NCBI GenBank assembly: GCA_964016885.1 | Contig: OZ024755.1 | Location: 13,144,001 to 13,208,000 of the forward strand | Reading direction: 5' to 3' | Length of the DNA stretch: 64,000 nucleotides | Origin: Eledone cirrhosa | Taxonomy: Eukaryota | Part shown: piece by piece, positions 6,591-35,694 of the stretch | How positions within the stretch are numbered: position 1 is the first letter of the stretch | Layout: each line of letters opens with the position of its first letter | The notes under the pieces: model-generated | Seen by the model: only the letters and a program-made list of their open reading frames with translations | What the model was told of the DNA's origin: nothing | Databases searched by the model: none | Made by a program: the position numbers and the translations under genes

Positions 6591-7717
6591 GCACCATTCT
6601 GTATTTTGGTAATCACTAGTAAAATACATGTAATTTATGTATGGGTCATAGGTACGTGTACACGAAGTGTATATGTTGTAGTTATATGTAACAACAGAAT
6701 AAAAAAACTAAAGTTTGCCCCTCACAAAAATGTAAGCCCATGCTAACTGGCTCATCGGACTCCACTCCACCCTACACTCATTTGTGTCTGCTTCGGAAAA
6801 GCATGAATATCACAATTTATTTATTTTTGTTCAGATTCCATATTTCTGCAAAAATCACATTAAATGGATGATTCCGACTAGATGTTTGCTTCACGCTGTA
6901 TATGATCCAGTTGGGTGTTTTACATCAAATTAAATGTGTCATACGATTTTTAAATTTAAAACAGACTGCAGTACAGTATGTCTTTCAGCTATCCAAACTT
7001 TGATAATTACTTGAATAATATACATCAAAATCTGATATTGTACCTAAATAAAAAATATATTAAATACTATGTTGATGGGTGCTGAATAAAACGATGGATT
7101 CACAGCAAACTAAGTTTGCGACGAAGTTTCGATTCTTAGTCAGAATCATTTCAGCTTAGATCGTTTATGGCCCTGGAAGAAAGGCATGCATGGACTATCT
7201 CATTTTTATTCTCTTTCCTCCCGAAATCTGAGCACATGTGCTTGTCTGATTTATCATCACTGACCGCAGCAGGCGCCAATAACTTAGAGCTGTGTAATTC
7301 TGTATATTGAAAAGTTTATACCTAATTAAGTGACTTCATTAATACTGCTACAGCCGATATTTTGCCTAGTGCAACTTGTCAAAATATAAGCCAGAAATAC
7401 ACATCTAAAAAGGATTATAATAATATTGCATATGATGTTGTTTGTTTGTTGTTGTAGCAATTAAACCATTCATTACGATGTGGCGGGAGACCCAGTAAAC
7501 AACACCACATGTAGTAGTAGCATGCTTTCATCGACAAAACAGCCAAGACCGAAACCAAAATAAAAACAAAAAACATTATACTGCAATTAATTAAGACAGA
7601 GAAAAGCAGGGGAAAATGAACGAGTCGGTATATTAAATACTGAAATAAAGACGAAGGCTGGAAGAAGAAGGAGGTGGAGGAGGAGAATAATCGTAATAAT
7701 ACCATGCATCTCCTTAC

Positions 7718-7995
7718 CTTGCAAGACACTCGACTAAATGTGATATAGGGATTTATAATATATGTATATATATATATTTTTTTTTTAAACCTTCCAACTA
7801 TACAACACTCCCCCGACACCAATGTCGATGAGAGAGAAGTAAAGGTAGAAGTGACTAGACGGAAGGGGAGCAGTTATAGAAAGAATAACACAACGAGGAT
7901 GGATGTTTGTGGAAATGGTGATGATGCCAAGCAGGCAACTGACGTTTTCACTTCTGTATAAATGATTGCTCCCTTTCGAACACCGACTTCCGGGA
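7718..7995 (-). promoter_or_regulatory. candidate promoter and non-coding first exon of a minus-strand gene
   Basis: Minus-strand Inr-like TCAGTT (7937-7942), ETS-type ACTTCCGG (7986-7993), TGACGT (7940-7945), strong donor AAG|GTAAGG at 7718/7717, local CpG retention, no ATG in the exon. Confidence 0.45.
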
Positions 7996-16636: not shown

Positions 16637-16699
16637 ATGCAACCCTACCGGATCATTAAAAAGATGATGTCGTCAGGCAAAGTTATCAAAGATTATCTG
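16637..16699 (+). CDS. APEH: APEH candidate first coding exon 1a (MQPYRIIKKMMSSGKVIKDYL)
   Basis: ATG at 16637, 21 open codons, donor CTG|GTAAGA in phase 0 matching exon 2, in locally CpG-containing sequence. No homology support, so this is an inference. Confidence 0.55.
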
Positions 16700-17540
16700 G
16701 TAAGAACAGCCACTATTTATGATATACCTGCATTCATTTAACTGATCTCGGCAACATTTTAAAGCTTATTTATTCCTCCTCCTACTTTTCTTGCTGTTTT
16801 TAAGATTTTTCTGTTCACCTTCCGCGTGTTCTTTCTTCACTTATATGTTGTTTCTTTTTTTTTTTTTTTAAATTTAATTATTTTCATCTGTTTTGTTGCT
16901 GTTGTTAGTTCTCTCTATCTGCTATGGTTAGCACCGTTGTTTGGCACTCGCTTCTTCTGTATTTGTTGTTTAAGAACATCTACTTTCTCAGTTCTATCCA
17001 GGCTGTTGTGTTTACGTACACATTTAATCATTTGAACTATTAAAATCTGTACACAATTATTCAATTACCGAACAAACCACAGCAAAAATTTTTTTTTTTA
17101 ATTAAAAAAAAAACGAAATCAAATAAAATAACAACAACAACTTTTAAAATGTTAGAGGTTACGGACACTTTATTGCCTGCATATTATTTAAAGTCGTCTA
17201 TTCGTTATTTCATTTGAGCTGAAAATCTGTTATGGAAATGCATGAACATCACATTTTCTTATTTGTTCTCTTCTTTTACTATGTGTCTTAGTGCTTAACT
17301 CAACATTAAGGATGAGAAATATTCTTAAATCAACACATCACTGCATTATATATATATAACGATATTATGTAGGTGTTCGTGTCTGTCAATCAGAATCGCA
17401 GATTACAGATAAATATATTGTTTATTCATGTACAACAACAAATAGAACACCCACATTTTACGCCCACTCACTCAATACATACACACGCATATATATGCAC
17501 ACACACACATATATGCACACACACATATATGAATACACAC

Positions 17541-17586
<46 letters not shown>

Positions 17587-18087
17587 GTGTATGTATATAT
17601 ACGTGCTGTATTTTACTAAAAATTATTTCAGTAGTCAATTTACTCTAATTTCAGCAGAACGTCAACATTTGTTTTCGCCAAAGAATTGTTGTAGAACAAA
17701 TAAACTATAAGTTTTTAAAAAAGCATCTTGTGAAAATATGGCATTTTTTCCTAAAAGACGATTTGTTTTGATTACCTCATAGACATTTGGAATATAATCA
17801 CAGACACACACACAACGCTGTATATACATATATACGTGTGTTCCCAAGATCTTAACTTAATGTTAAAGTGTCCATGTCGACGAGGCATTAACGTTATTGA
17901 GAGTCAATGTTGTTCTTTGCTTATATTTATTTTTCTAATATATATAAACACAAACACACATATATATATATGCACACACATACTCACACATATGTGTGTG
18001 TGCGCGCGTGTGTGGCACAAAGCCTTAATTTCTAAAACCAAAAGGGAGGTTGAAACCGGATCGCAAACCCAGTTCATAGAGAGTATA

Positions 18088-18130
<43 letters not shown>

Positions 18131-19619
18131 TGTATGTGTGTGTGAATTATGGGGAATAATTACCCAACCAGACTTCCATAAAACGTATACATAGATACAC
18201 ATATCGTTTCTTTTTCATCAAATCACTTTCATTTGGAAGATTTCATATACATTTCACTTTTTCAACAAAAGTTTTTTTCTTCTTTTTTTTTATTGTCATC
18301 TCTCGACGAGAAGACTGTTATAATCATCAGGGGTTATAATCATCAACTAGGGAGAAGAAAGAACTGACTTTGAATGATGCATTTTAATGTGAAAAATATA
18401 TTCTAGCCGGTTATAATCTTTCTTCATAGCCTCTAATACACCACATATGAAGGGCTTGCGAAGGACATGAGCACTGTCCCTTCCATCTCATATCATACAA
18501 AACCAATATATTTATATATATATATATTATGAATGCTTACGTAAATATATGAACTTTCTAATACTCGGGAGATAATTGATTTGTGGTTTGTTCGAGCAGA
18601 TCCATGATCAAAAGCATTCCAACCGTAAACAAGCTGTCTTTTTTATTTCGTGATATATATGAGACTGCATTAATAAAGTACCAGTAATGCACTAGGATAA
18701 TTGCTGGCCTTGTGCCAAAAGTAGAAACAATTATCTAATGTGTCGTTCTCATATTTAAGATGGTATTGTGTGGTTTGAGGCTAATTGGCTGTTATTTCTA
18801 GTAGGGCGAGTGGCCGCTTTGAAGCGCGCATGTTGAGAAGATTTAGCAAATTTATTGTATTTTTTAAAAGAAACTTCAACTATTGTATTGCACTTTTTGG
18901 TATGGTATATGAAGTTGCCATCATATTTATTAAGCCTTACTTTACAATTTCACTAATTTAGTGTTTTATATATACACCATATTGTATAAGTCTTTGATAG
19001 TTCCTAATCCAGTTGACAAAAAACGACCTTCCAAATTCAGGTGTGATCGTACTTTGCAGTAAAACTTTAATAGCCCTCATTACAACCGCTGGTTCATTAC
19101 TTTTGGTCACCATTGTGTACGTATGTGAAGTAGCATGTTTTGATAGATCTGAAAAAATGGTGGTGGGAAATAATGTTTCGAATAAGTTATAATTGTAGTT
19201 TAGTCCCAGATCAGCCCTGACTATGTCGTCTTCTTTTTTTTTTCACCACCAGTGTACCCTTCACAGTATTATCCAATGTGTCCTTTTTAAGGGTGCTATT
19301 TTAAAGAAGATTCTGGTTGCTATTTCTTACATGTCAAGCGACCAGCCTGAGTCTTTCACATTGTATTAAGTTCTATCACTGCAAACCATAGCTCTCAAAT
19401 TCTAGTGATTATCCTAGGTGTAATAACATTCTTCCATTATTCCCGATCGTTTACACAAGACTTTTAAGTTATTTGGACTAAATCACCTTTTAATTGCTCT
19501 TTGTAATCCGTCACCTATTAGCTTTATACCTTGAGATGTGACAATATCATACGTGCACGCACCACACACGAACCTGTAAATGTATATATTTATACAAACT
19601 ACACACAGATATATATATA

Positions 19620-19663
<44 letters not shown>

Positions 19664-20119
19664 GTAGTTAATCCTTTACGTAGCCAACTTACCACTTTCG
19701 ATTTAAAGTTAGTTCAAACAAATCCAACACTTTATTATCATTATATTTCCTTTATAGTGTCAAACAAACAGACTGTTAATAAAATAAAGAAACAAGCATA
19801 AAACATTTTTCGTATTTCTTTGGTTAGCTTCATTTGTAATGGAGAAAGTTTGTTTAAACTTCACGTTGAAGGATCGTGAAACTTGTCTCAGCTCTCGTTA
19901 GTCCCTTTTCTTTTGTTCCTGTTTTGGGTTTTATTCTGGGCTTTTTTTTTTCTTTATAGTTTGCCTACACTAACCTCCACTCGGTAAACAATTTGTGCGA
20001 ATTAAATTATATAATGTTTGCAATAAAAAAAAAGATAAGAAGAAAAATGTAATAACGAAAGTAAGGAGGATGGAGGAGATAGCGACTAACTCTGCTTAAG
20101 TCAGTCTATTCCCCAGTCT

Positions 20120-20314
20120 ATGCGGTATATCTCAGCTGCTCCCCGCGGACAAAATGGCGAAGGCATTCATTGCCTCGATGAACAACCAGCGACGCCCGCG
20201 GCATCAGCTGCTCCACATCTCGGGAGCCCCTTTCCTCAGCTGGGATGCATTCCTCCCAATTTTGCGGAGGAAAACGGCAGTTTGGAGACCGGGGACACCT
20301 CATCAACAGATTTG
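20120..20314 (+). CDS. APEH: APEH candidate alternative first exon 1b (65 codons, MRYISAAPRG...TSSTDL)
   Basis: GC/CpG-rich island, Inr-like TCAGTC at 20101-20106, ATG at 20120, donor TTG|GTCAGT at 20315 in phase 0 matching exon 2. Confidence 0.5.
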
Positions 20315-20654
20315 GTCAGTTTTCTCTGCTACTGTGTGTGCCATATGTCAAAAGAATGATGAATAACAAGTCACTGAAAGGTTCATATATAAATGCAAAC
20401 ACCGACCCAACCAATAGTACCCCTGTTAAAGTATTCAAAATTTTAAATTATAGACAATATTAGATTTCTGTAAAATATTTGTCTTATTAATTTGAACATT
20501 AGTTATATCACTAAACTTCTCATAATTAACTTGATTACTTTGATAATTAAAACACAAATGTGGTATATTTTCGTTACAAAAATGGTGATGACAGGATTAA
20601 TATTTTATAGCTATATGTAAGAGTTTAACAGCTGGAATAATGATGGGATAGCCA

Positions 20655-20900
20655 GTGTGTTATGTAATTAGTGTGTTGTGTAGTCACTGTATTGTGTGAC
20701 TCTGTTGTGGGACTGTATTGTGTAGTCAGTGTTGTGGGACTGTATTGTGTAGTCATTGTGTTGTGGGACTATTGTGTAGTCAGTGTTATGTAGTCACTGT
20801 GTCTGTGGAACTCTGTTGTCTAGTCACTGTGTTGTGGGACTATTGTGTAATCAGTGTGTTGTAGGATTGAGTTGTGTGGTCAATGTGTTATGTAGCTGTA
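20655..20900. repeat. degenerate ~15 bp repeat (TGTGTTGTGTAGTCAC-like)
   Basis: Direct reading. Confidence 0.75.
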
Positions 20901-21371
20901 GTATAGGACTAGGTTGTTATGGTTGTTAAACACAGTTTTCAAAGTTCCAGTTTATGGAATATGTGAAAGTATGAGTTAAGCTTGTGTCAAAACTGTGTGA
21001 GTTAAACTGGAGTCAAATATGTGTGAGAGACAAAGAATATGTAATATTATCTATACAAATGTGTATGTTGTTATCTGTGATAGTAAGTTGTTTATTGAGA
21101 GCAATGATCCTCAATGTTAAGATTATGATCCAAATTAGGTAATAATATAATTCTGGAAAGGTTATGAAGACAAAATTTTTTTCTTTTTAAATATTTGATA
21201 ACATGTAAAATGTTTTTGAAAAGTTTAAATAATAAGCTATAGCAGCATAAACATCACAGCACAACATGTTTTCTTCAAACAATAGCTGAGGAATATTCCA
21301 TCAAGAAAAGTCTCAAATGTTAAGTTTGGGGGCAATTTTAAGATAAGCTTAATGTAGATATCACTACTATT

Positions 21372-21680
21372 TGACTGCTTTGTCAAACACGGATCAAGGC
21401 TTTAGTGATGTTAACAGACCACTTTGTCAAACATGGAATCAAGGCTTTAGTGATGTTAACAGACCATTTTATCAAACATGGATCAATGCTTTGGTGATGT
21501 TAACAGACCACTTTGTCAAACATGAATCAAAAATTTGAAGTCAGTAGACCATTTTGTCAAACATGGGTCAAGACTTTACTGATATTAATAGGTCACTTTG
21601 TCAAGCATGGATCAAAAGTTTGCAGTCAGTAGACCACTTTGTCAGACATGGATAAAGACTGCTGAAATTAACTGGTCACT
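21372..21680. repeat. ~44 bp tandem repeat, ~7 copies
   Basis: Recurrent GACCACTTTGTCAAACATGGATCAA. Confidence 0.85.
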
Positions 21681-24245
21681 AATTTTGTTTTAATAATCGA
21701 GGAGAAGAGGATCTATTTGTTCTGAGGTTAAGGTGCTAGACTTTGTTATTTGATCAAGAATTAAAACCTCAACTACAGCTATATGTGTGGGTGTAAGATA
21801 TAACTGTTTAACTAAAAAATAGGTTCAATTATTGAAAGGGTATCCAACTGTAAAAAGAATTACTTCAGCAAAATGTTCAAATCGGTAAAAAAAACTCTAT
21901 GCTTGTATAGAATTTTTGCATCAGTTTTTTTTTTTCATGCTTGTATGGGCTGGCTACATCTGATATCTTTTATACCCAGTTTTTCTTTCAACTCATCTAT
22001 GCCTTGTTGCTCATGCACACTAACATTGGAGATCCAACAGAACATGCTCACTTCATTTCTACCCAGTTTGAAGAAAACTTGGTAGGTTATTTTATGTGTC
22101 ACTAAATAAACAATTCTCTGTATTTCAACATTTAAGAGGTTCCTATATATTTGGTGTTTATTAGTGTAGAAGCAGATGTTGGCTGTTATAAGATACTGTG
22201 TTATATGATATTTGATAATTTCACTGGTGTCCAGTTGAGGCCTACAGCTGGCTGGCCAACATATATGAATGTTGACCTACCAACGTAAGTCTCAGTTTGT
22301 TCCACTTTGATCAATAGAATTCTCTTAAGTCAATAGAATTCTCTTATGTAACTCTGATCTGGCTGTACAAAAAGATATCAAGTGACCATGTGTTTTTTGT
22401 TAGCTTGCAATGCTGGGTTCAAATTCTTTCCCAAAGTAGTTGTTTCTGTTTATCTCAAATGAGTGAGATAAATGTAATTCCCCATTTGAATTAAACTAAG
22501 AATATCATACAATGTGTACAATATTATACAAACATATATATGTGTGTCATCATCATCATCATCATCATCGTTTAACGTCCATCTTCCACGCTTGCATGGG
22601 TTTGGACGTGTGTACAATATCACACGCTTGGTAATATGTACAATATCATACTTTCACAAAGGGTTTTTGGTGCCCATGCTGTGTAGTGAACAGCCACAAA
22701 CGCAGACACCCTCTCATCCTTAACTCCTTTGATCTAGCAGAACATTTAAGATGTGATAGATAGAAGGCTGCACTAGGAGTGATTTGAGGGTGAATTGGCT
22801 ACCATTTCTAACATGATGATTGACTGTCTAGAGGCATCCTCATTGGTCTATTATGGTTTGTTAAAGATAGATGTGTCGGTACAAAGAGATTTTTGTAAGA
22901 TATTATGCATGGTCATATAGTTTCAGGTTCAAATCACTCTGGAGTACCTAGGACTTGTTTCTTCTGTAATCTGGAGTACCTGGGACGTGTTTCTTCTACA
23001 ATAGCCTCAGGTTGACCACAACCTTGTCAGTAAATTTTTGTTGACAAAAACCGTTGTGTGTGTTTGTGTGTGCATGCATCTGGCTCTATATGTCTTCCCA
23101 TTGACACCACTTAAGAAAGTGGTGCCATTTGCTTATGTCTGACATAATATATTCTGCAGTTTAGTACTTTGAGAGATGATCAATGGAATAAGTACCATAC
23201 TTTAAAATAAAGTATGGGTTGGCATCAGGAAGGGCATCCAACAATAGAATTCTGACTCAAAAATATGTCTTGGCTAACTCATGCCAAATTGGGGAAAAAA
23301 TATGTAAAAACAATGGTGTGATTTGAGGGTGATTTGGCTGCTCTTTCTGTCATGTTGTTAGATAAACTGTGTAGTGGTAGCCTTATTAGTTTATGTAGAT
23401 TAGTTTGTAAAAGATAGGTATGTCTGTGTGAACAGCTTTTTGTAAGACAATATGGCATGATTTTGACTGCTATTTCTACCATGTTGGTTCATACATATTG
23501 TGGCTTGTAAAAGACGGGTGTGTCGGTGAAAACAAGTTTTTGGTAAGAAGGACAGACTTGCTAGCTCATGTGTATTAAGGTGTGTAAAAGATAGCTATTT
23601 CTATCTGAACAGTTTTTAAAGACAGTATGGTGTTATTTGAGGGTGATTTTTTGGCTACTATTTCTACGAAGCTAATTGACTATGTGGGGGGTGAGGGCAT
23701 CCTCCGTAGGTCATATATATTACGGTTTGTAAAAGATAGGTGTGTCTGATTGTGTGAATACCTTTAAATTTCCTCTTCTGTTATTTCTGTATGAAAGGTT
23801 ATCTCATTTTACCTACTACACCTGCTCACAGCAGTAGAGTGTTGGCAAAGACTGGAATATTGGCGCTACTTTGGATAGTATTTCTTCTAATTCTGTATTT
23901 GTATATCTCTTTGCTAGCTTACAAACCCCATTACAACTATCTGAATAAATGGAAAGGGCATGAAGGGAGAGGGTATTTTTTCTGGAAGTTTGTATCTCAT
24001 TTAGTTAAGATTCTATTAGGCCATATGGTTTATATGCCAACACCTTTCCCTTATATTTCTATTTACATATTCGACTAATTTAAAACTAAGCCTATATAAT
24101 GCTCCTTAAACATCTTAATTCTCAGCTACATGTCTGTAATTTATTTTGTATGAACTAATTTCTTTTCATTGTGTACTGTTAATTTAAATGTTTACATGCA
24201 TATAAAAAAATATTAAGTGCATCTTCAAATCTTTATTATTTTCCC

Positions 24246-24324
<79 letters not shown>

Positions 24325-24788
24325 TCAGTCTGAGACAAGACATGGTTGGATAACCACATTTGTTCATATGTTCCACATTTTGCTTAGTTTCTAGGGCGAG
24401 ATGCCTTTTCTAAAGTCAACCACTTTACAGGGTGTACTGGGTGCAAAATGTTGGCAAAAGGACAGTTTATTTATTTTTTGTTGTGTTTAAAATGACAAAA
24501 TCCATGTGGTCATTTCTTTATGCGCCCTGCCATATCCCAGTCTTTATTATGGTCAGTTATCTAATCAGTATTGTTTGTTTTTGTTTGTCCTACAAATACT
24601 CTCCCAGATGCTGGTTGTTGGTGCTCCCCCATCCACCTATTCCCATTAACCACCCCTTCCACCTCCATATACTTACTATTGACTGCTCCCTTTAGTTCCC
24701 ATCAACTACTCCTACCCTTACTTTGCTGTAATTCAGCCTCGCTCATGACAACTCTGCTAACTCAATTTGAACTGATCTTTTCTTAGCC

Positions 24789-24848
<60 letters not shown>

Positions 24849-26059
24849 ACATTTTTTTTTGAGGAATTTCCTTCCTCCATCTCTGTTGTATAATTGTATA
24901 ATTTCTCCTTTACTATCCTTCACAGTTCTTGTTCCTTTTCCTCTTTTCTCACTTCCTCTCCTTCCTTCACGCCATTTCAATCATGTCCTTCAAGCAAATT
25001 TGCAAATGAGGAATCTACTTTTACGCAGAGAATTGCCATGTGGTATTTATCTGTGCAATAAAGACAATCTGTCTAGGATCTTGGTCACTCTAAAATGTAA
25101 ATGACTAACACAGGGTAATGAGTCTCAGAGAAATGTAAAATAACCTCTCTAGAATTGATTCCATAAACAAAAACTCAATATAATTAATTTAATTTGACAT
25201 CATCTCTAAAATTATGGAGTGTTTAGTAGAGTTTGCAATGTTACAAGAATTCAAATCAGGAGCTTGCTTTGAGGTTAATATAATCTTTCAAGATGCCCCA
25301 TTTAAATACAACTTTGCTTACACTGGGGTTGATTCTTCCTCTATATCTCTCTCACTTTCTTTTTCTTGCTTTCTATCCTTCTTTGGAAGAAATTTACTGT
25401 GTTCAGACTTGGAGAGAGATGGGCTTTGCCAGGCTTAAAATCCTCAAGAAATGCTGTATACCACTATGACTCCCTACGACTCCATCAAGAGTTATGTTAT
25501 GGGACCATACATAAGTACATACACACTCAGAGAATGAAGCGAAGTGATTCTGACCCTTTTCAAGGCATTTGAGACTGATAAGCCCTTAAACACTAGTATT
25601 TTGAGTCAGGAGACGAGTACCCAGTTTACTCACAAGGCTTGGGGTTACCTGTGATTATGGTAAAGACAATTACCCAAGATTCCACACAGTGGAGTTAAAA
25701 CCCAGCGCTTCATAATGGCAAAGTGACACTTGTAAAAACATGTGTGCATGAATATATTTCATTTGTGTGTATGAGTATATCATCATCATCATCATTGTTT
25801 AACATCCACTTTCCCTGCTAACAAGGGTTGGGTGGGGCTACATAGACCAAGTCAGTACTGAATAGGGGCTACTGATCTCCCAGACAGGTCAGGAATCTGT
25901 GCCTCACTTATGTACGGTCTCATGTTCCACTGAGTGCACAGGAGAGGTTGTCATGTCGTTGACATAACTGAAGGTCTCCCCTGTGTGAGTATGTATGTAT
26001 ATATATATATATATATATACATACATATATATATACATCATCATCATCATCATTATTAT

Positions 26060-26225
26060 TTTATGTCCGCTTTTCCCTGTTTGCAAGGGTGGGATGAGTC
26101 CTATTCAGCACAGGCATCTCTCCATTCATCACGGCCCTTCCTCATCTCCTCTGTGAGCTTCAGCGATCTGAGGTCAGCTCTCACCACCTCCACCCATGAT
26201 TTTCATGGTCTTCCTCTACTGCGTC
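26060..26225 (-). mobile_element. RTE LINE 3' fragment
   Basis: SRGRP*KSWVEVVRADLRSLKLTEEMRKGRDEWRDAC, followed by an (ATG)n tail. Confidence 0.7.
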
Positions 26226-27344
26226 TATCTATATAGGCCTTAAGAATCGGTATTTACCATCTTCTTGTAAGTTCAATGCTTGCCTTCCAGCTTTTCTTGT
26301 GCCTATTATATATTTATATATCTACACATGGTCATGGATACAGTTTGTCTAGCTACTATTAACTGAAGTGTATCCTCTGATCGGTTCGTTTTGCAACTGT
26401 TATGTCATCGAGTGATTGCCAGACAATATGATCAATATTTTGTGTATTGATCAAAATTATTCTTATATATATATATGTGTGTGTGTGTATCTATATATGT
26501 GTGTGCTTATCATCAGCATTAACATCATGTATACATATATTTATCAGGGAAAGGATATATTTGTGGTAAATTTAATGCAATGATACATGTTGATATCGCT
26601 GTATTTTGGCACCAGTGTGTAATTATTGTCTGTAGAACTGGCCTGTAGCCAACACAGAATCTCTGGAGCTTTTAAAAATATTTTTCTAGAATGTGAAACT
26701 TTGCATTGCATTATGGGTACATTTTACATTTCATTTGTTTTTAATTCATTAAATTTTTTAATAAATTTTCACATTCTAGCATGGGTTTAATGTTTCTACA
26801 AATTTCATAATTTACTTTATTTACACACACAAAGAAAAACAATTCATAGCTATGCTAATTATCACAAAGAACCAACAATTAATAATGTTTCTAGTCACTT
26901 AAACCTTACTGCCTCCATTCAGTCAGTATAAATATTGCAATAAGTACCATGGATAGGCATAATTTACCACTAAAATATTCAGTCATTGAAATATATAAAG
27001 TTTGTGGTTAGATACATGTATGCAACTTATCTATTGGATATATAAAACCTGAATTTAGAATAAATACATTGTAAAGGTATGTAAAATGGACTTCTACATG
27101 AGTATGTCAGTATGCATATGGAAAACAGACATTAAATGGTGATTATGATCATGATGAGGACGATGATATACAACAAGAGTTTTAAGGCTATTTTCCCTGC
27201 TAAATCAAAGGTTAACCATGCAGAGCCTTTCATAACAGGCTTCACACTCATCTTAGGGTCATTTTTGAGACAAGGTTTTGCCTTGAATCTTATCTGAAAT
27301 TATTTCAATGTCTGTCCAGGTCATAAGTCATTGCTTTTATTTTA

Positions 27345-27500
27345 ATTGTGTATGAAGTGCAGTGCTGCATGGTATTGAAACATGGGCAGTGATTGTTGAG
27401 GACATGCATAGACTGGAGAGAAATTAATCAACCATGTTTTGTTGGATGTGCAATGTAAATATGAGAGAAAGGCAGAGTTTAGATGAACTGAGGGAGACCC
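27345..27500 (+). mobile_element. RTE LINE internal fragment
   Basis: SAVLHGIETWAVIVEDMHRLERN*STMFCWMCNV..ELRE resembles the RTE post-RT motif LYG.ETW. Confidence 0.7.
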
Positions 27501-28257
27501 TTGTTCTAGCTACTACACACTCAACTACTACTGCCCCAGGCCCTTGTTTTAGCATCTGTACCCTGTATTAATGAACCATTAGTATTTATTGTTTGGTTGA
27601 ATCTTATAGAGTAGAAGAAAAAAATTTCATGTTGGTCATTTATACTAGTAATTAGTATTAAATACATTTTCACTTTGGTGTTTAGTAGCAATACAACTTA
27701 ATTGGTGCTCTTTAATCTTGTCATATTAATTATATACAGGTGAGAACTCTGCTTTAAACAAAGCTTATTACTCTGTTGCATTATGGCTCAGGTAAACTTT
27801 GTGCAATTACACTGATGACTATTAATCATTGTTACCTGCATTTATGGTCATTTAGATCTTACCTATCAAATATATGAAACCTTTTACTTGTTGATTGGTT
27901 GTTTCAAATTTTTGGTTCTCAAATATCTTCCTTGCCTACATCACCATCATCATCATCATCATCTCATCACCACCACCATCCCCACCACTATCATCACCAC
28001 CACTATTATCATCATTACCCTCATCACCATTATTATCACCATCATCATAATCAATAGCATATATTCCAAGATAAATGAAAGCATTGCTTACCCTGTAAAA
28101 ATTATGTAATTATCTTGTATATTTATTGTGGCATAGTTTCATACACTATTAGATTCATTATTATAGTATTTGAATAATAAGATTAACCTTTTAGAATAAC
28201 ATAATAAATTAATAATGGTTTTAACTGTTTATGAATCTGTTAGATTTTATTTTGAAA

Positions 28258-28850
28258 GAGATGGTACCATTGTGTGAGGCTAGTGTCCCTCAGTGAGATG
28301 GTACCACTGTGTGAGGCTAGTGTCCCTCAGTGAGGTGGTACCACTGTGTGAGGCTAGTGTCCCTCAGTGAGATGGTACCACTGTGTGAGGCTAGTGTCCC
28401 TCAGTGAGATGGTATCACTGTGTGAGGCTAGTGTCCCTCAGTGAGATGGTATCACTGTGTGAGGCTAGTGTCCCTCAGTGAGATGGTACCACTGTGTGAG
28501 GCTAGTGTCCCTCAGTGAGATGGTATCACTGTGTGAGGCTAGTGTCCCTCAGTGAGATGGTATCACTGTGTGAGGCTAGTGTCCCTCAGTGAGATGGTAT
28601 CACTGTGTGAGGCTAGTGTCCCTCAGTGAGATGGTATCACTGTGTGAGGCTAGTGTCCCTCAGTGAGATGGTATCACTGAGTGAAGCTACTGTCTCCCAA
28701 TGAGATGGTATTACTGTGTAAGGTTACACACCCTCAAAGAGATGATATTACTGAGGCTCCTGTCCCTCAAAGAGATCGTGCCATTGTGTGAGGTTACAGT
28801 CCTACAAAGAGATGGTATCACCATGTGAGGTTACTGTCCCTCAAATACAC
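28258..28850. repeat. 37 bp minisatellite GAGATGGTA(C/T)CACTGTGTGAGGCTAGTGTCCCTCAGT
   Basis: About 11 near-identical units then about 5 decaying units; no spacers. Confidence 0.95.
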
Positions 28851-31800
28851 AATACCCCATTTGCTTACCATAACAACATTCCACTGATCATCATCATCAT
28901 CATCAGAGATAAAATTACTAATAAGGATTCATGTAATTTTATATTGTGAAGGTTGCTTAAATAAAGGACTACCATTACTCATTATAAACATAGTATATAG
29001 TCCTTTGTAGTATGTTGTACTAGTTATACATATAAAGAGTATCATTAGATAACAGTTAACATCATCATCATCATAATCAGTATGAACTGTGTAACACCTG
29101 TCCTTCTGAACAGCTGTTCATCTGTCTCTGTCGCTAATTTACCTGTCAGATGTGACTTATGAAGATTTGATTTAACTACTTTTTACTTCCATCTAGAAAA
29201 TACATCAGATCTGATCAGCTACTGATTCTCTGCCAAAGCTCAGTACTGATCTTACATCTATGATAGTGCTACTGCTAAACATACCTAAACATACATAGAC
29301 CCATATTACAGTACTGATCTCACATCTAGGATGGTGCTACTGTTATACAAACACACACTCACACAAACACACAACCTCTATTACAGTACAGCTCCCACAT
29401 TTAGGATAGTGTTGCTGCTACACACACACACACACACACTCACACATCCTAGACTCTTATGACTACCACTCCCACATTTTGGGTGGTGTTTACACACGTT
29501 TACTGAGGTAACTGTGATGTGACCACAGCATAGCATAATATACCTTCGGGACATTTGTCTATTATAGATTAACATATTATATATCCTTCCATATACACCT
29601 CTATACTTCATGTATGTATCAACTCCCAGTCAATATCAGTTTTTACCTACCTCATCTATATCCAATCATTGTGCCTAACGTAGAAACAATTATCATTTAA
29701 CATCCATTTTCCATGCTAGCATGGGTTAGACGAGTTGTTCCGTTGTCAGGTCAAGTGTCCATGTCATGCTCATACAGAACTGGTTTCTACAGCTGGATGC
29801 CCTTCCTAATGCTAACCACAATTACAGTGAGTACTGGGTGCTTTTTGTCGTAGAAATAAAATACTAAATAGATTTCTATTGGAACTCAGACCATAAAGAA
29901 CCAGAAGAAAACATTTTGCCCAACTCTCTAATATTTCTGCCACTTCACTGCCATCAACAACATTTATATCTCAACACTTTTGTGTGTATTAGTTATGCTT
30001 GCCTAACTACACCTATCGCAATATCACCAACAGTCTGATGAGCTTATCAGCACAAGGAATATGAATATTTGTGCCAAATAAAAACAATTTTTAAACTGTC
30101 AAGCAATCAATCTTTCTAGTTGAAACAAACAAGATCTGAAGAAATGAAGATTTTATCAAAATTTGGTTGATTCTTATGAGATATCAAACTATCTGAGACT
30201 GCCTCTGGTTCTACAATATGGAACTATTTAAACAACCAGACTTAAGAAACATTGGGAAATTTTTTTAATTGAAATATAGACATCCCAATGCAAGTAACTA
30301 TAATAATAGTTGAGAAATGGAGGCTTTTTAGATAAATATAAACATTTAAACTCTTTCATTACCATATTTCTAATTAAAGGCACTCTATAATTTTCAAATA
30401 ATTTTGAAAATAATCAACAATTTTGAGGGATTTAGTAATATAACTAACTTTCTCATTACTAAGCTGGAGTTTGTGCCTATGTGGAAAGCACCCCTGTTCA
30501 CACTGAGGCCTCTGTCCACTTTTTTCTGTCTCCTGGAGTATTTTACCCAATTTTCTCAGCTATTATCTATAGTGATCGACTTACATCTACATTTAAAATG
30601 AAACTATTTATTTTAAAATTTATCTGAAAATTTTCCATATCTTTATGTTCCAAACACCAGCTTAATAATGAGAAAGTTGGTTTTATTACTAAATCCCTCA
30701 AAAATTTGATTATTTTCAAAAATTATTTTAAAACTAGTATTTTTCATTAGAAATATGATAACAAAAGAGTTTAAATGTTTATATTTATCTTTTAAAAAAA
30801 CTTCCACCCTAATTTTATCATCATCATCATATATCAGAATATTTAAGTTATGCTCCAAACACCAATAAATGTGAGTGGGGGATTGAAGGAATTGCTTTTT
30901 TGGTATCTGATCTAGCTCTGTTTAAATCTCACCTTCTTTTGTCAAGAGTTGTGACCAGTAGATAGTATCAGCTATGGAGATAATTTCCTTAGTCTTATCT
31001 GAAAATAGACTCCTTTCTATTTTTTTCTTTTCTTTAGAAATATGGTAACAAAAGTCTTCAACCATATTTTCTTTGTTTTAGACTTTTGTCTATTTCCAGA
31101 CCAGCTACATATTTATGAAACTTCTACTGATCACTTACACTACAAATAATTGTGATTGTCTTTCAATATAACCATTACAGCATTGAATAACCTGTCTTTA
31201 TCTCTACAACATATGGTTACTGGTAATTGGAGCTTGTTGAGATATCTAGGAAGGAGTAGTATGTAGGATTAATATCAGCTACTAACCTATTATATATACT
31301 CTGTTCTATTGAGCCATCCTTCCTTCTTCTTTCAGTCATCTGTGTGATCTAGGTTGATGAAACACATCTCCACCCCCATCACACCACACCCCCACACCAC
31401 CATGCCCTTCTCTATTGGTTACAGTCAGTTTTATTTACATTATGAAACACAATCCAAGTCAACTAATGTTAAATTTTAATAGACCAATCAGTACACAGAG
31501 AAATCAGTATACTGACCAATCACTGAGTTCTGTATAGGTTTGGCATCATCATCATCGTCACCATCATCACCACTATCACTATCATCATAGTTAAAATATT
31601 GTGATCCATCCATGCCTTTAGTGAAAGACAACAACAACACCTAATCATACTCAGCCCTACCATCTAAACTGGACCCAGTGGGTATAAGAGGGTTTGATGA
31701 CTAGAGAACAAAGGTGAGGATTTTAATATTGACTTCTATGTTATCTACCTTCAGTAGCTACTGCTCTGAACTGAGAGTATGATATGTAGGAGGTGAGGAG

Positions 31801-32679
31801 GGAAAGATTTGATTCACAGTTCTGGAGTTAGTGTGATGGGGTGTAGGGTGAGGGAATATTCAAGAATTCTCTCCCACCCCTATCTTTTTTCTTTCTTTTC
31901 AAATCCAAATTAATTATAATCTTGGAATGATCTCAAATTCCTCAACAATGCTTCAACTTCAGTTGGGAAGCCAAAATCTCCCATGTGTTATATTTCATAT
32001 CTAAACTACTTTGGGTCTTTTATATAATTAACAGCTTCTCGTAAAAAAAAGTTACCAGGGCTTTTTAATGTTGTTTTACTCATGATAAATATATATATAT
32101 ATTCTTGTTACTGTTTAATGAGCAGACCTTTGGTAAAGGGTGTTACCTCATAAACTAAACCTGTGAGATATAATAGTCTATCTTTCAGGCACTTATCCCA
32201 GCTTACCTTAGATATTATTTTCACTGACTCAGCTTCTAAATGTACTGTAAGAATATCAGGGACTCTTTTAGACAAGGCATCAAAGATTACAAATTGTTTA
32301 TTATTTACATAAATGGAGACAAGGTGCAGTTTGCCTTCATGGAAATATGTAAGACATGAATCACTGGCTCACATAAATATTACTTATTAAATCACCAACT
32401 TAATAAAATACTAATTATTACATCACTAGTTCACCAAAATATTACTTACTAAATCACCAACTCACTGAAATATTAATTATTACATTACTAACTTCCTAAA
32501 ATACTTACTAGTTATTACCTCAGATAACTAAAATTAGAGAGGAAATGTTGAGATGATAGCAATATAATATATATATATATATATATTTAAAAGTGAAAAG
32601 AAAATATGTTGTGGAAGTATGACTGAGATAGGAAATGCTTTGTGTGTATTTTTTTTTGTGTAAATCTTATACTGTTGCA

Positions 32680-32710
<31 letters not shown>

Positions 32711-32715
<5 letters not shown>

Positions 32716-32895
32716 AAAAAGTTTAACCCCGACGGCAGAGCTCAAGCCGTTTCGACGGCTATTTCTGGATGTTGAAACGGCTTGAGCTCTGCCATTGGGG
32801 TTAAACTTTTTCCTATTACCCACTCTACTACCCTAAGTATTGACTACTCTGGTGCGTTATGGTCCCTCTGGTTTCGTACCACACCTCCTTCGTTA
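32711..32895 (+). mobile_element. foldback element (46 bp arms plus ~75 nt tail) inserted in (TA)n
   Basis: Arms 32711-32756 and 32771-32816 with three CpG-type differences; TA repeats on both sides. Confidence 0.7.
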
Positions 32896-33347
32896 TATAT
32901 ATATAAACATGTGTTTTAGAAATGATGAGTGAAATTTGAAATTTATGAGAAAGTTTGAAACTTCATGAATTTTTTTGATTATAGGGAAATAAATAATAAA
33001 GCAGCCTCTGTTAGTATCTAATATTTTTATGGCTGTGCCCCAGAATGGCCTAAGCTAGACAGCTGGAAGAGGTAAAAAAGTAAAAGAGTAATAGAAGCTC
33101 CCTTAAAAGAAAACTGGACATTAGCACCTGTGTGATATGAGCCCATATCTTCATGCTTGCTGGGCAAATGTGCTACCATTACGCCGAAGTTCCCATCACA
33201 TTTTCTTCCATTATTTTAAAACTACACATACATAATGAGAAATAAACAAACATGTTATGGAAACAATAAGCAGATTTTGAAATCTATGAGAAAGAAGCTT
33301 CATCAAATGTATTTTTTTACTCTAAATAATAGGGCATATAAGCACCC

Positions 33348-33577
33348 TTAACCCTTTAGCATTCATATTATTTTATATATATACTATTATATTTTCATGG
33401 TAAAGGCTTTACCTCGCTTAATTATCTCACATAATATTGAATCTATGAGATTTTGAAAGTATTTATTTTGAGAACAAAACCTTAACATCAGTTTGAGCGA
33501 CCAGTTACAGCCAGTTTCAACAGAAAGAGCTAGAGAATTCTGGCCGGTTTTGGCCGGTTTGAACATTAAAGGGTTAA
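33348..33577 (+). mobile_element. piggyBac-type MITE
   Basis: TTAA-CCCTTTA...TAAAGGG-TTAA termini; four copies in the window. Confidence 0.8.
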
Positions 33578-33862
33578 TGGAAAAATGAACATAAGCAGCT
33601 GTAGGGTTCATATGCCTTATTATTTAGACCATTTCTCTTGAGTAAAAATAATTTGATGAAGCTTCTAACTTTCTCATATATATATGTAGGAGGTGAGTTT
33701 TATTGTAGTACAATAAAGCAATGCAAATATCAGATAAGTAGCACTCTACAGTTTGTAGGACTGGAGTATAAATAATATAAGATCAAAAGATGGTTAAAAG
33801 AGTTCCAAGATTTAAAACTTCACTATTCACAAGTGTTTTTTAACCTTCATATCATGTATCCC

Positions 33863-33933
33863 TATTTTATCTGATGAAAACGCAGATATCATCTCATGAT
33901 GATATTTGTTTTTGAAATGTGCATAATAAAATA
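33863..33933 (+). ncRNA. type I hammerhead ribozyme motif (Penelope-like pLTR type) in APEH intron 1
   Basis: Stem I TATTTTAT/ATAAAATA, CTGATGA (33871-33877), 16-position stem II with 15 pairs, GAAA (33914-33917), self-complementary stem III ATGTGCAT, AUA cleavage triplet ending at 33925. Confidence 0.8.
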
Positions 33934-34254
33934 CTTGGAACTCTTTTAACCATTTTTTATCTTATATTATATATATATATACACACACGCAATTTTTTTT
34001 TTTTGTAAAATACAAAAATTTTGCATATAAATCTTGGCCTGAGGTTGTACAAAAAAAGAAAATACCACTGACACTGAAATATATTTTCTAAGAGCTTCAA
34101 TAATTAATATATAACTGTATGAAGTGTGTGTGTGTGATGATAGCTACCAAATTTCTTGCTTTTGCTTTTCAAATTAAGTTATTGCCTTGCCAAAGAATTT
34201 GGGATGCTTCCAAATTGTTCCTTTTTGAGCCTTTCTTTAAATATTTCTTTTCAG

Positions 34255-34484
34255 GTAGAGGAAGCCATCTCCATTTACAGAGAATATTCCAAATTCCCTG
34301 TTGTGTCAAGTGCCAAAATTAGTTTTCCAGAAGGTTCATCTCACATCATTGTTAACAGTGAAAGTACTCAACGAGATTTAGAGAGAAGGGAGCAGGTGAA
34401 GTTTAGCCGAAACCATATTCTTACTCATGAACATGGAAAATATTCTGTATTGTATAAAACTCCTCCAACAGAATTATCCAAAGA
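34255..34484 (+). CDS. APEH: APEH exon 2 (VEEAISIYREYSKFP...TQRDLERREQVKFSR...ELSKE)
   Basis: tttcAG acceptor, GA|GTAAGT donor, N-terminal APEH motif TQRDLER. Confidence 0.95.
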
Positions 34485-34677
34485 GTAAGTTCATTCTTTC
34501 ATTCCTTCATTTTATATTCATTCTAGTAATTTATTATTTCTGAAGTTAGCTTTGCCTTTCATCCTTTCGTGGGGAGTCGATAAAATAAAGTACCAGTAAT
34601 GTACTGGAGTCGATTTAATTGACATCCACCCCCCAGACAAAATTTGTTGGCCTTGTGCCTCAATCACAAACCATTAT

Positions 34678-34870
34678 GGGCATGTGGTTAGAATGTCTCA
34701 GGAAAGAATCGAGCAAGATGGTTGGATAACATCCATGAGCTTGGCTGGTCACACTTGGGGATCTAGCCAGATAAGTTGGAGACAGTTGCTTCTGACAGGA
34801 CCCACTGGAGGGAGTGTTTGAGGACTCAGCCCCTCACTCCTTCTCAAGAATAAGTAGGCGAAGAAGAAGA
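34678..34870 (+). mobile_element. RTE LINE 3' fragment with (GAA)n tail
   Basis: GHVVRMSQER..RWLDNIHELG..LETVASDRTHWRECL. Confidence 0.7.
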
Positions 34871-35694
34871 TATTTATTTATTTTGTAGAGCGTTATTGGT
34901 TAGTCAGGAGGAAGAGCCAATGCCCATGACCCTTTTCAGTTTTGGCTGGGATGGTATTAAAAGGGTTAAAATCTATTTTACCATGGAGTAAAAGAGAAAT
35001 CTTTTATGTTTGTGGACAAGAACCAGTGCTGAAAAGTTAAAACTTCTTTTCTTCCCCATGATGAAATATATTATTCCACTTTACTAACTTTGCAACTTCC
35101 CAAGTCTATTGTTCTCTCTTTCTTTCTGAACTGCCATATTTCTGAAACATGAAATATTCTTCAATTAACACTAATTAGTCAGTCATTGTTCATTGTAGTT
35201 GTTCTTCCTCCTCCATTTTCTTTTCTTTTCTTCTTCCTCCTTTTCTTCTTTCTTCTTATCTGTTTCTTTCTTTTTTTTTCTTCCTTCTTTCTTCCACCAC
35301 CATCACCATTTCTCTCTACAATGACCCAGTAAAAGCCAACAAAGGAAGCCCCCCCCCCCCCCCCCCCCCCAAATGGTTGCTCAATTTACTATAAATAGCA
35401 GTGAAATCTCTCTCGCAACACCCCCTACTTTTTAAAAAAAAAAGGTAAGGAAAGGTTGCATAAGATAATGCAATCTCAGATTATACTATGACTGAGAAAA
35501 AAAGATAAGATGGTCAGAACTGGAATGTCTCTTTGATCAGGGCTAACTTAGGTTTAAACAACAATTATGACTCAATCAATTAGCAGCAAATATCCTCAGC
35601 AAGGAACCAATAATGAACATTAACTCTTTGGAGACCAAACCACTTGAAATCACTCCTCTTCCAAGAGTTGTGGGAGTAGAGTTCTCAGACATGC

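Follow-up and report, generated by a model that had tools for sequence, protein, structure and literature searches.

A hammerhead motif of probable Penelope-like origin in an intron of Eledone cirrhosa APEH

Penelope-like elements are known for a build of pseudo-LTRs, a tail and inverted copies, and hammerheads in their repeats, including those of an octopus family of the Hydra clade, have already been published. According to Craig et al. (2021, PMC8557442 / bioRxiv 2021.04.23.441226), the Hydra clade is marked by DKT and CxCX5C, the absence of the CCHH motif, (TA)n targets and a hammerhead. For the minimal hammerhead of a Schistosoma Penelope-like element, PMC4209133 reports no cleavage of the single motif and weak cleavage of dimers; it also describes the G-C first pair of helix II as highly conserved in other Penelope-like motifs. 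The pair is not obligatory. The hammerhead of PAc (Poseidon of Anolis carolinensis; Frangieh et al. 2024, PMC11167929) requires protein and is dispensable for insertion, and AUA is listed as a natural hammerhead cleavage triplet (PMC1636495). A 2-bp helix III with a tetraloop has been likened to invertebrate hammerheads, most of which are described as cleaving well as monomers, and a second-hand account has it that intronic hammerhead cuts do not block splicing. The motif described here would be an ordinary relic of a Penelope-like repeat and is probably a passenger.

We analyzed a 64,000-nt stretch of Eledone cirrhosa contig OZ024755.1 (positions 13,144,001 to 13,208,000), hereafter called the window. 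Reading of its + strand at 33863-33933 revealed a type I hammerhead core with helix I open, sense to the gene APEH. The core consensus (CUGANGA, GAAA, U16.1 and H17 in the standard hammerhead numbering) is present throughout, with CUGAUGA at 33871-33877, GAAA at 33914-33917, A17 at 33925 and the cut triplet AUA ending there. Helix I (33863-33870 with 33926-33933) consists of eight Watson-Crick pairs, A-U throughout, and helix II (33878-33913) of three A-U pairs, a C.U mismatch, 12 pairs and a 4-nt loop. The G10.1-C11.1 pair expected at the start of helix II is A-U in this motif. Self-pairing of the helix III palindrome AUGUGCAU is predicted to span all 8 nt, including two G.U wobbles, at -6.0 kcal/mol. 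The first-pass annotation, made from the letters, had described a full core with an AUA site at 33925, a perfect 8-bp stem I, a long stem II with A-U instead of G-C as its first pair, and a stem III able to pair over 8 nt with a second copy; our reading agrees on each point, the last being a prediction.

The motif was the only descriptor match in the window, while 200 local shuffles gave 0.005 matches per window at a helix I of at least 5 and zero at at least 7; the 96-mer around the motif had a folding z of -2.9. Rfam returned no family at the gathering score for the window, and hammerhead families were absent among the seven weak matches obtained at E<=10. A chance origin of the motif was considered and ruled out by the shuffles, by the count of a reversed control and by covariation relative to shuffles, the latter two given below. 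The features are collected in Table 1.

Table 1. Coordinates in the window of the hammerhead motif, the insertion that carries it and the neighbouring coding exons.
Feature	Position	Strand	Remarks
APEH first coding exon	16637..16699	+	exon mapping
Left (TA)n target flank	33676..33685	.	sequence, alignment of copies
Inverted arm, 89-nt tail	33686..33774	-	in full-length elements between pseudo-LTR and ORF
Inverted arm, repeat part	33775..33809	-	reverse complement of 33934-33967, with its end 8 nt 3' of the cut site; in pre-mRNA predicted to clamp the ribozyme on both sides
Direct arm, pseudo-LTR of the Penelope-like element without tail	33810..33967	+	start shifted inward by a few bases relative to the 5' end typical of the family
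Type I hammerhead motif	33863..33933	+	descriptor match, folding, covariation across subfamilies; predicted cut between 33925/33926
Helix III palindrome AUGUGCAU	33917..33924	+	apparent CpG-decayed form of the subfamily's AUGCGCAU; monomer 2 bp + tetraloop, dimer 8 bp
Right (TA)n target flank	33968..33981	.	target duplication indistinguishable inside the microsatellite
APEH second coding exon	34255..34484	+	PDB and Octopus bimaculoides APEH match, exon mapping

The gene that hosts the motif is APEH, encoded on the + strand (match to PDB 7px8, E 3.6e-5; 92% to Octopus bimaculoides APEH), whose coding exons span 16637 to 58928 and all lie inside the 64-kb window. The predicted cut site is 329 nt upstream of coding exon 2, in an intron (16700-34254) of 17,555 bp. 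The motif had earlier been placed about 330 nt before exon 2 in a long first intron; distance and length stand, and 'first' holds for the coding introns, as coding exons were mapped. A 3,253-nt contig of sequencing run X4, the kind of which is not on record, covers within the window 34254-34484 only, and thus lies exactly on exon 2 as spliced RNA would. Among the matches listed for the run X4 contigs, where an empty-site allele was sought, there was no joint across the insertion. Pfam called no family on the APEH exon, and a search of the genome for APEH_N gave zero matches, with the controls likewise silent. A candidate first exon near 7900 was rejected: no run X4 contig lies there, and the first coding exon is instead the one at 16637. 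The same region (7700-7960), outside the APEH coding region, contains a short frame at 7900 and, near 7719, a minus-strand site that resembles an exon donor. Elsewhere, a GC-richer stretch inside the APEH intron (20090-20463) is open in all three + frames. Further high-copy repeats lie beside the insertion (33335-33600) and exon 2 (34540-34875), the former recurring at about 38740, 58580 and 60760.

The motif sits in a 282-bp insertion within (TA)n, on a direct pseudo-LTR (33810-33967) that follows an inverted tail and repeat end (33686-33809). When the genome was searched with 33700-34100, 2,248 candidates emerged, and the 40 that were scored yielded 40 near-full-length places at 86-100% identity. 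All 30 aligned copies adjoin a TA-type microsatellite and have the two-arm build, with a junction that varies from copy to copy. A 52-nt pattern across the repeat end and tail had 487 exact genome matches, and among the first 30 such loci arms frequently extend into a pyrimidine-rich region or join reverse-transcriptase frame fragments. One copy (L040:1480-1620), a single case, is inverted perfectly about the predicted cut site. Compared with the majority of its 29 best matches, which were chosen for likeness, the window copy differs in 9 of 266 columns, five of them at the junction. Because these changes are few, the window insertion appears to be a young copy, with about 4 changes in 266 columns.

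The repeat is very abundant. A 13-mer comprising helix I and core (the exact 5' half) had 59,000 genome matches, against 115 for the reversed control; in 40 regions chosen from its first listed places, with some neighbours skipped, 30 of 50 occurrences showed the full core and the 3' strand, across several subfamilies. The exact 3' half with the perfect palindrome AUGCGCAU, which is the form of the subfamily, occurs in 23,157 genome copies. The core is kept by 121 of 139 full-span subfamily copies, 100 of which also keep the perfect palindrome, and the first helix II pair of the 121 is mostly A-U or G.U. The motif is thus not the single copy that would mark a host-domesticated ribozyme. The palindrome variant of the window is present in 489 copies, and its mirror variant, for which full self-pairing is impossible, in 470. 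Given that these numbers are nearly equal, the variant bears no apparent sign of selection, and the symmetry is consistent with CpG sites having decayed neutrally once inserted. The palindromes of sister subfamilies are weaker than that of the window copy (-2.2 to -3.2 against -6.0 kcal/mol), and therefore the CpG change need not, judging by predicted energies, disable the window copy.

We also investigated the parent element. A search with one reverse-transcriptase (RT) frame fragment gave 25,528 candidates, and the 150 that were scored included several open frames of >800 codons. We fetched 10 regions, selected for long frames. The tail lay directly 5' of the frame in eight of them and a sense repeat followed the frame in nine; both tandem and inverted arrangements were found, with periods of 3.7-3.9 kb, and same-strand repeat copies in the fetched loci recur at 3.1-4.1 kb. 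Full-length copies have a single ORF with RT and C-terminal GIY-YIG between pseudo-LTRs, as expected of an EN+ Penelope-like element, which the window copy does not, and their pseudo-LTRs are only 85-92% identical to the window repeat. Partial tandems, inverted 5'-truncated copies and a tail at one end likewise correspond to the Penelope-like build. An 821-codon frame contains DKT in place of DKG, YRDD and a CxCX5C linker (CNC-RIKNK-C); it lacks the CCHH motif and has a single Cys inside the endonuclease motif, between its two halves. Together with these features, (TA)n insertion and the presence of a hammerhead match the Hydra clade, and the motifs of the frame align by eye with the Hydra-1_Obim rows in the supplement of Craig et al. 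Neighbours of the frame in a protein atlas (0.95-0.98) carried GIY-YIG, RVT_1 and HTH_animal on part of their members, with GIY-YIG on 26-50% of members in five rows. Pfam called neither RT nor GIY-YIG on the element proteins, including the 821-codon frame, and a PDB search with this frame gave no relevant match; the domain names used here come from the motifs, the atlas neighbours and the published alignment. By its motifs and the by-eye comparison, the element appears to be a Penelope-like element with Hydra-clade marks. A literature search for a description of this family by name found none, and a catalogued entry in Repbase/Dfam is possible. Other Penelope-like frame fragments were seen close to copies of the repeat (minus-strand frames near the repeat in L011; L036:3-815; L037:1-855).

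Next, we scanned 397 kb of loci by core letters and spacing, with pairing not required. This gave 197 core-anchored matches, 136 of them distinct and forming 24 clusters, against 6.1 per shuffle. The distinct matches, most of which are kin and not independent, were paired in helices I, II and III in 91, 90 and 89% of cases, against 39, 43 and 38% in shuffles. In an alignment of 10 rows, hand-picked and so favouring the result, 16 of 21 pairs changed on both sides; none of 500 shuffles reached this, and all slid controls were lower. Family covariation, which the first-pass annotation had named as a check, is therefore present, and together with the paired helices it indicates that selection maintains the ribozyme in the element family. 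Three covariation-backed helices with helix I open make this a type I hammerhead, whose helix II exceeds the length that the canonical loop 1-loop 2 contact allows. Because the two central bases of helix III covary yet cannot pair within the hairpin, this covariation points to a dimer. The earlier caution that a lone copy may need a partner seems right: we judge a second copy likely to be needed. Among the 15 clusters from loci L001-L160 in which helix I is paired, 9 have three helix II pairs and next to them a C.Y mismatch, with covarying pairs on either side; several clusters are kin. The conserved mismatch at helix II position 4 is a candidate tertiary-contact site. Some other hammerhead families of this genome have G-C as the first helix II pair. 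Unrelated families with other helix I/III sequences were encountered in random flanks (L005, L009, L033, L057, L061, L064, L104 and L114); since several turned up in this way, the genome holds many more hammerhead families.

The ends of the arms were examined in two sets of loci. In L031-L100, for which the search pattern left out short tail arms, 4 of 113 arms ended within 2 nt of the cut site, which is about the expectation for an even spread, and 30 of 113 ended at a fixed self-complementary site 124 nt upstream of it, possibly a transcription start or a template-switch hot spot. The pile-up of arm 5' ends can be seen at the reference L035:1000-1632 and corresponds to about 33810 in the window. 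Among 30 BLAST-picked loci, three of the 30 tail arms ended at the cut site and 25 were shorter. The idea that the hammerhead cut sets the inverted-arm end, suggested by two loci (L003 and L017), was rejected, as most arms run through and, in L031-L100, only 4 of 113 end there. These statistics are in line with results on PAc, in which uncut RNA was found to serve as the template. If the present element behaves like this anole one, its protein would nick (TA)n DNA, reverse transcription would begin at two sites within the RNA, one that includes the 89-nt tail and one that does not, and the two cDNAs would be joined in inverted orientation. At APEH both cDNAs would have been short, so that only repeat sequence entered the intron. 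In the multi-copy RNA of the element, the ribozyme may act in dimeric form by way of the helix III palindrome, perhaps aided by protein; the lone intronic copy would be partnerless, and transcription would proceed beyond the 3' splice site in a matter of seconds.

We then considered whether the intronic copy can cleave. A second hammerhead motif was sought on both strands of the window and none was found. In folding, the active monomer fold lies 3.9 kcal/mol above the minimum, and the helix I pair probability is 0.50-0.76 in the 71-mer alone and 0.00 in contexts of 162, 306 and 761 nt, as is that of the monomer helix III in these contexts; the value is also 0.00 for the 162-nt repeat alone, so that it does not separate the window copy from active copies, and equilibrium folding ignores co-transcriptional folding. 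From the observed insertion anatomy, link to the element ORF, copy counts, covariation and palindrome decay, we conclude that the motif is very probably a pseudo-LTR hammerhead derived from a Penelope-like retrotransposon that has a high copy number and bears Hydra-clade marks. It remains in a short inverted insertion that lacks the ORF, and likely cuts APEH pre-mRNA rarely or never. Its origin from the element is nearly certain, and the effect on APEH is likely to be negligible.

An unlikely alternative keeps the same origin and lets the copy cleave enough APEH pre-mRNA to be measured, whether as a monomer, in trans with family RNA or helped by protein. All core bases are intact, but the first helix II pair is A-U where other Penelope-like motifs keep G-C. 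A cis partner is absent from the window, whereas the 23,157 perfect-palindrome copies are possible partners, with a predicted duplex of -8.6 kcal/mol between the window and family palindromes; Penelope-like minimal-motif dimers, however, cleaved weakly (this and the G-C pair from PMC4209133). The element has many long open frames and protein assistance is known for PAc (PMC11167929), yet no arms pile up at the cut site. Such a cut would be incidental and mostly harmless, because the inverted arm, 37 positions of which are predicted to pair at >0.9 around the motif, would hold the halves and splicing would tolerate slow cuts. Even less probable is that expressed element RNA, by palindrome pairing in trans, or element protein switches on the cleavage of lone intronic copies. 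If this were true, retrotransposon activity would lead to cleavage of the APEH pre-mRNA, and possibly of thousands more in octopus, and a hammerhead variant would exist in which a long helix II with a conserved C.Y mismatch replaces the usual loop contact.

The first-pass annotation had proposed that the motif, if active, would cut the APEH intron and could affect splicing or output. We regard such a co-opted intronic ribozyme, tuning APEH as in CPEB3, as very improbable. The sense orientation, which has even prior odds, the intact core, the first coding intron and the CPEB3 precedent would suit it, but the next exon is 329 nt away, against 9,931 nt for CPEB3 (PMC10274809). At the mammalian rate quoted there, polymerase crosses 329 nt in about 5-6 s, compared with a half-life near 50 s (k 0.8/min) for an efficient coral hammerhead. 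Moreover, the proposal does not fit a young end repeat of a Penelope-like element, in a family of tens of thousands of copies, without a cis partner and with symmetric, apparently neutral CpG decay of the palindrome as the sole change in the motif. Finally, a non-LTR retrozyme monomer, spreading as small RNA circles released by cleavage at successive hammerheads, is hardly credible: a length of about 300 bp, low GC and a type I motif resemble animal retrozymes, and retrozymes are argued to derive from Penelope-like repeats, but short head-to-tail units (150-450 bp) are absent in the window and the mapped loci, copies recur at 3.1-4.1 kb, and the unit is an inverted two-arm insertion with ends that differ from the cut site and a repeat attached to a coding element.

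The reading as a passenger Penelope-like hammerhead gives the locus a modest value, which lies in a very abundant, not obviously catalogued Hydra-type family with many long open frames. Several of its subfamilies covary at the unpairable centre of helix III, an observation in favour of the dimer model. Since it has tens of thousands of motifs, this genome could be used to test whether sense-strand hammerheads are purged from introns. The ultraconserved intronic hammerheads of amniotes are reportedly single-copy, on the sense strand of a host intron and conserved between species. The CPEB3 ribozyme (PMC10274809) shares the sense strand of a host intron with the present motif but is single-copy and conserved between species, unlike the young mobile copy described here.

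With the non-LTR retrozymes (Cervera and de la Pena 2020, PMC7229834), the repeat shares a type I motif in an AT-rich repeat of about 300 bp; it differs in having no short tandem arrays in the loci mapped, inverted arms and a link to an autonomous ORF. PAc (PMC11167929) shares the tail explained by two internal RT starts, AT-rich targets and no evidence of a hammerhead cut defining the inserted ends. However, it belongs to another clade, and its ORF starts inside the ribozyme instead of about 150 nt after the cut site. The min-HHR of metazoan Penelope-like pseudo-LTRs (Cervera and de la Pena 2014, PMC4209133) share the setting in Penelope-like repeats, mostly solo and genome-wide, as well as a long helix II, a palindromic 15.2-16.2 region and the dimer model. 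The window motif differs from them in its 8-nt helix III, because of which it is not minimal, in a helix I of 8 bp against 4-5, in lacking the bulged base after position 9 and in the replaced G10.1-C11.1.

Near counterparts are also found in Hydra-clade Penelope-like elements and their hammerheads, among them Hydra-1_Obim of Octopus bimaculoides (Craig et al. 2021, PMC8557442). In that description, they share with the Eledone cirrhosa element a type I motif near the 3' end of the element, a self-complementary helix III with many members cutting after A, (TA)n targets, DKT with CxCX5C, and inverted 5'-truncated copies. Hydra-1_Obim has its own hammerhead, and this family differs by eye from the Eledone cirrhosa element in protein and motif. 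Relative to the Hydra-clade elements so described, the Eledone cirrhosa element has a unit of 3.7-3.9 kb instead of 'generally <3 kb' and a tail of 89 nt instead of the usual 30-40, and it is further distinguished by a 15-bp helix II, a C.Y mismatch at position 4, an A-U first pair and a very high copy number.
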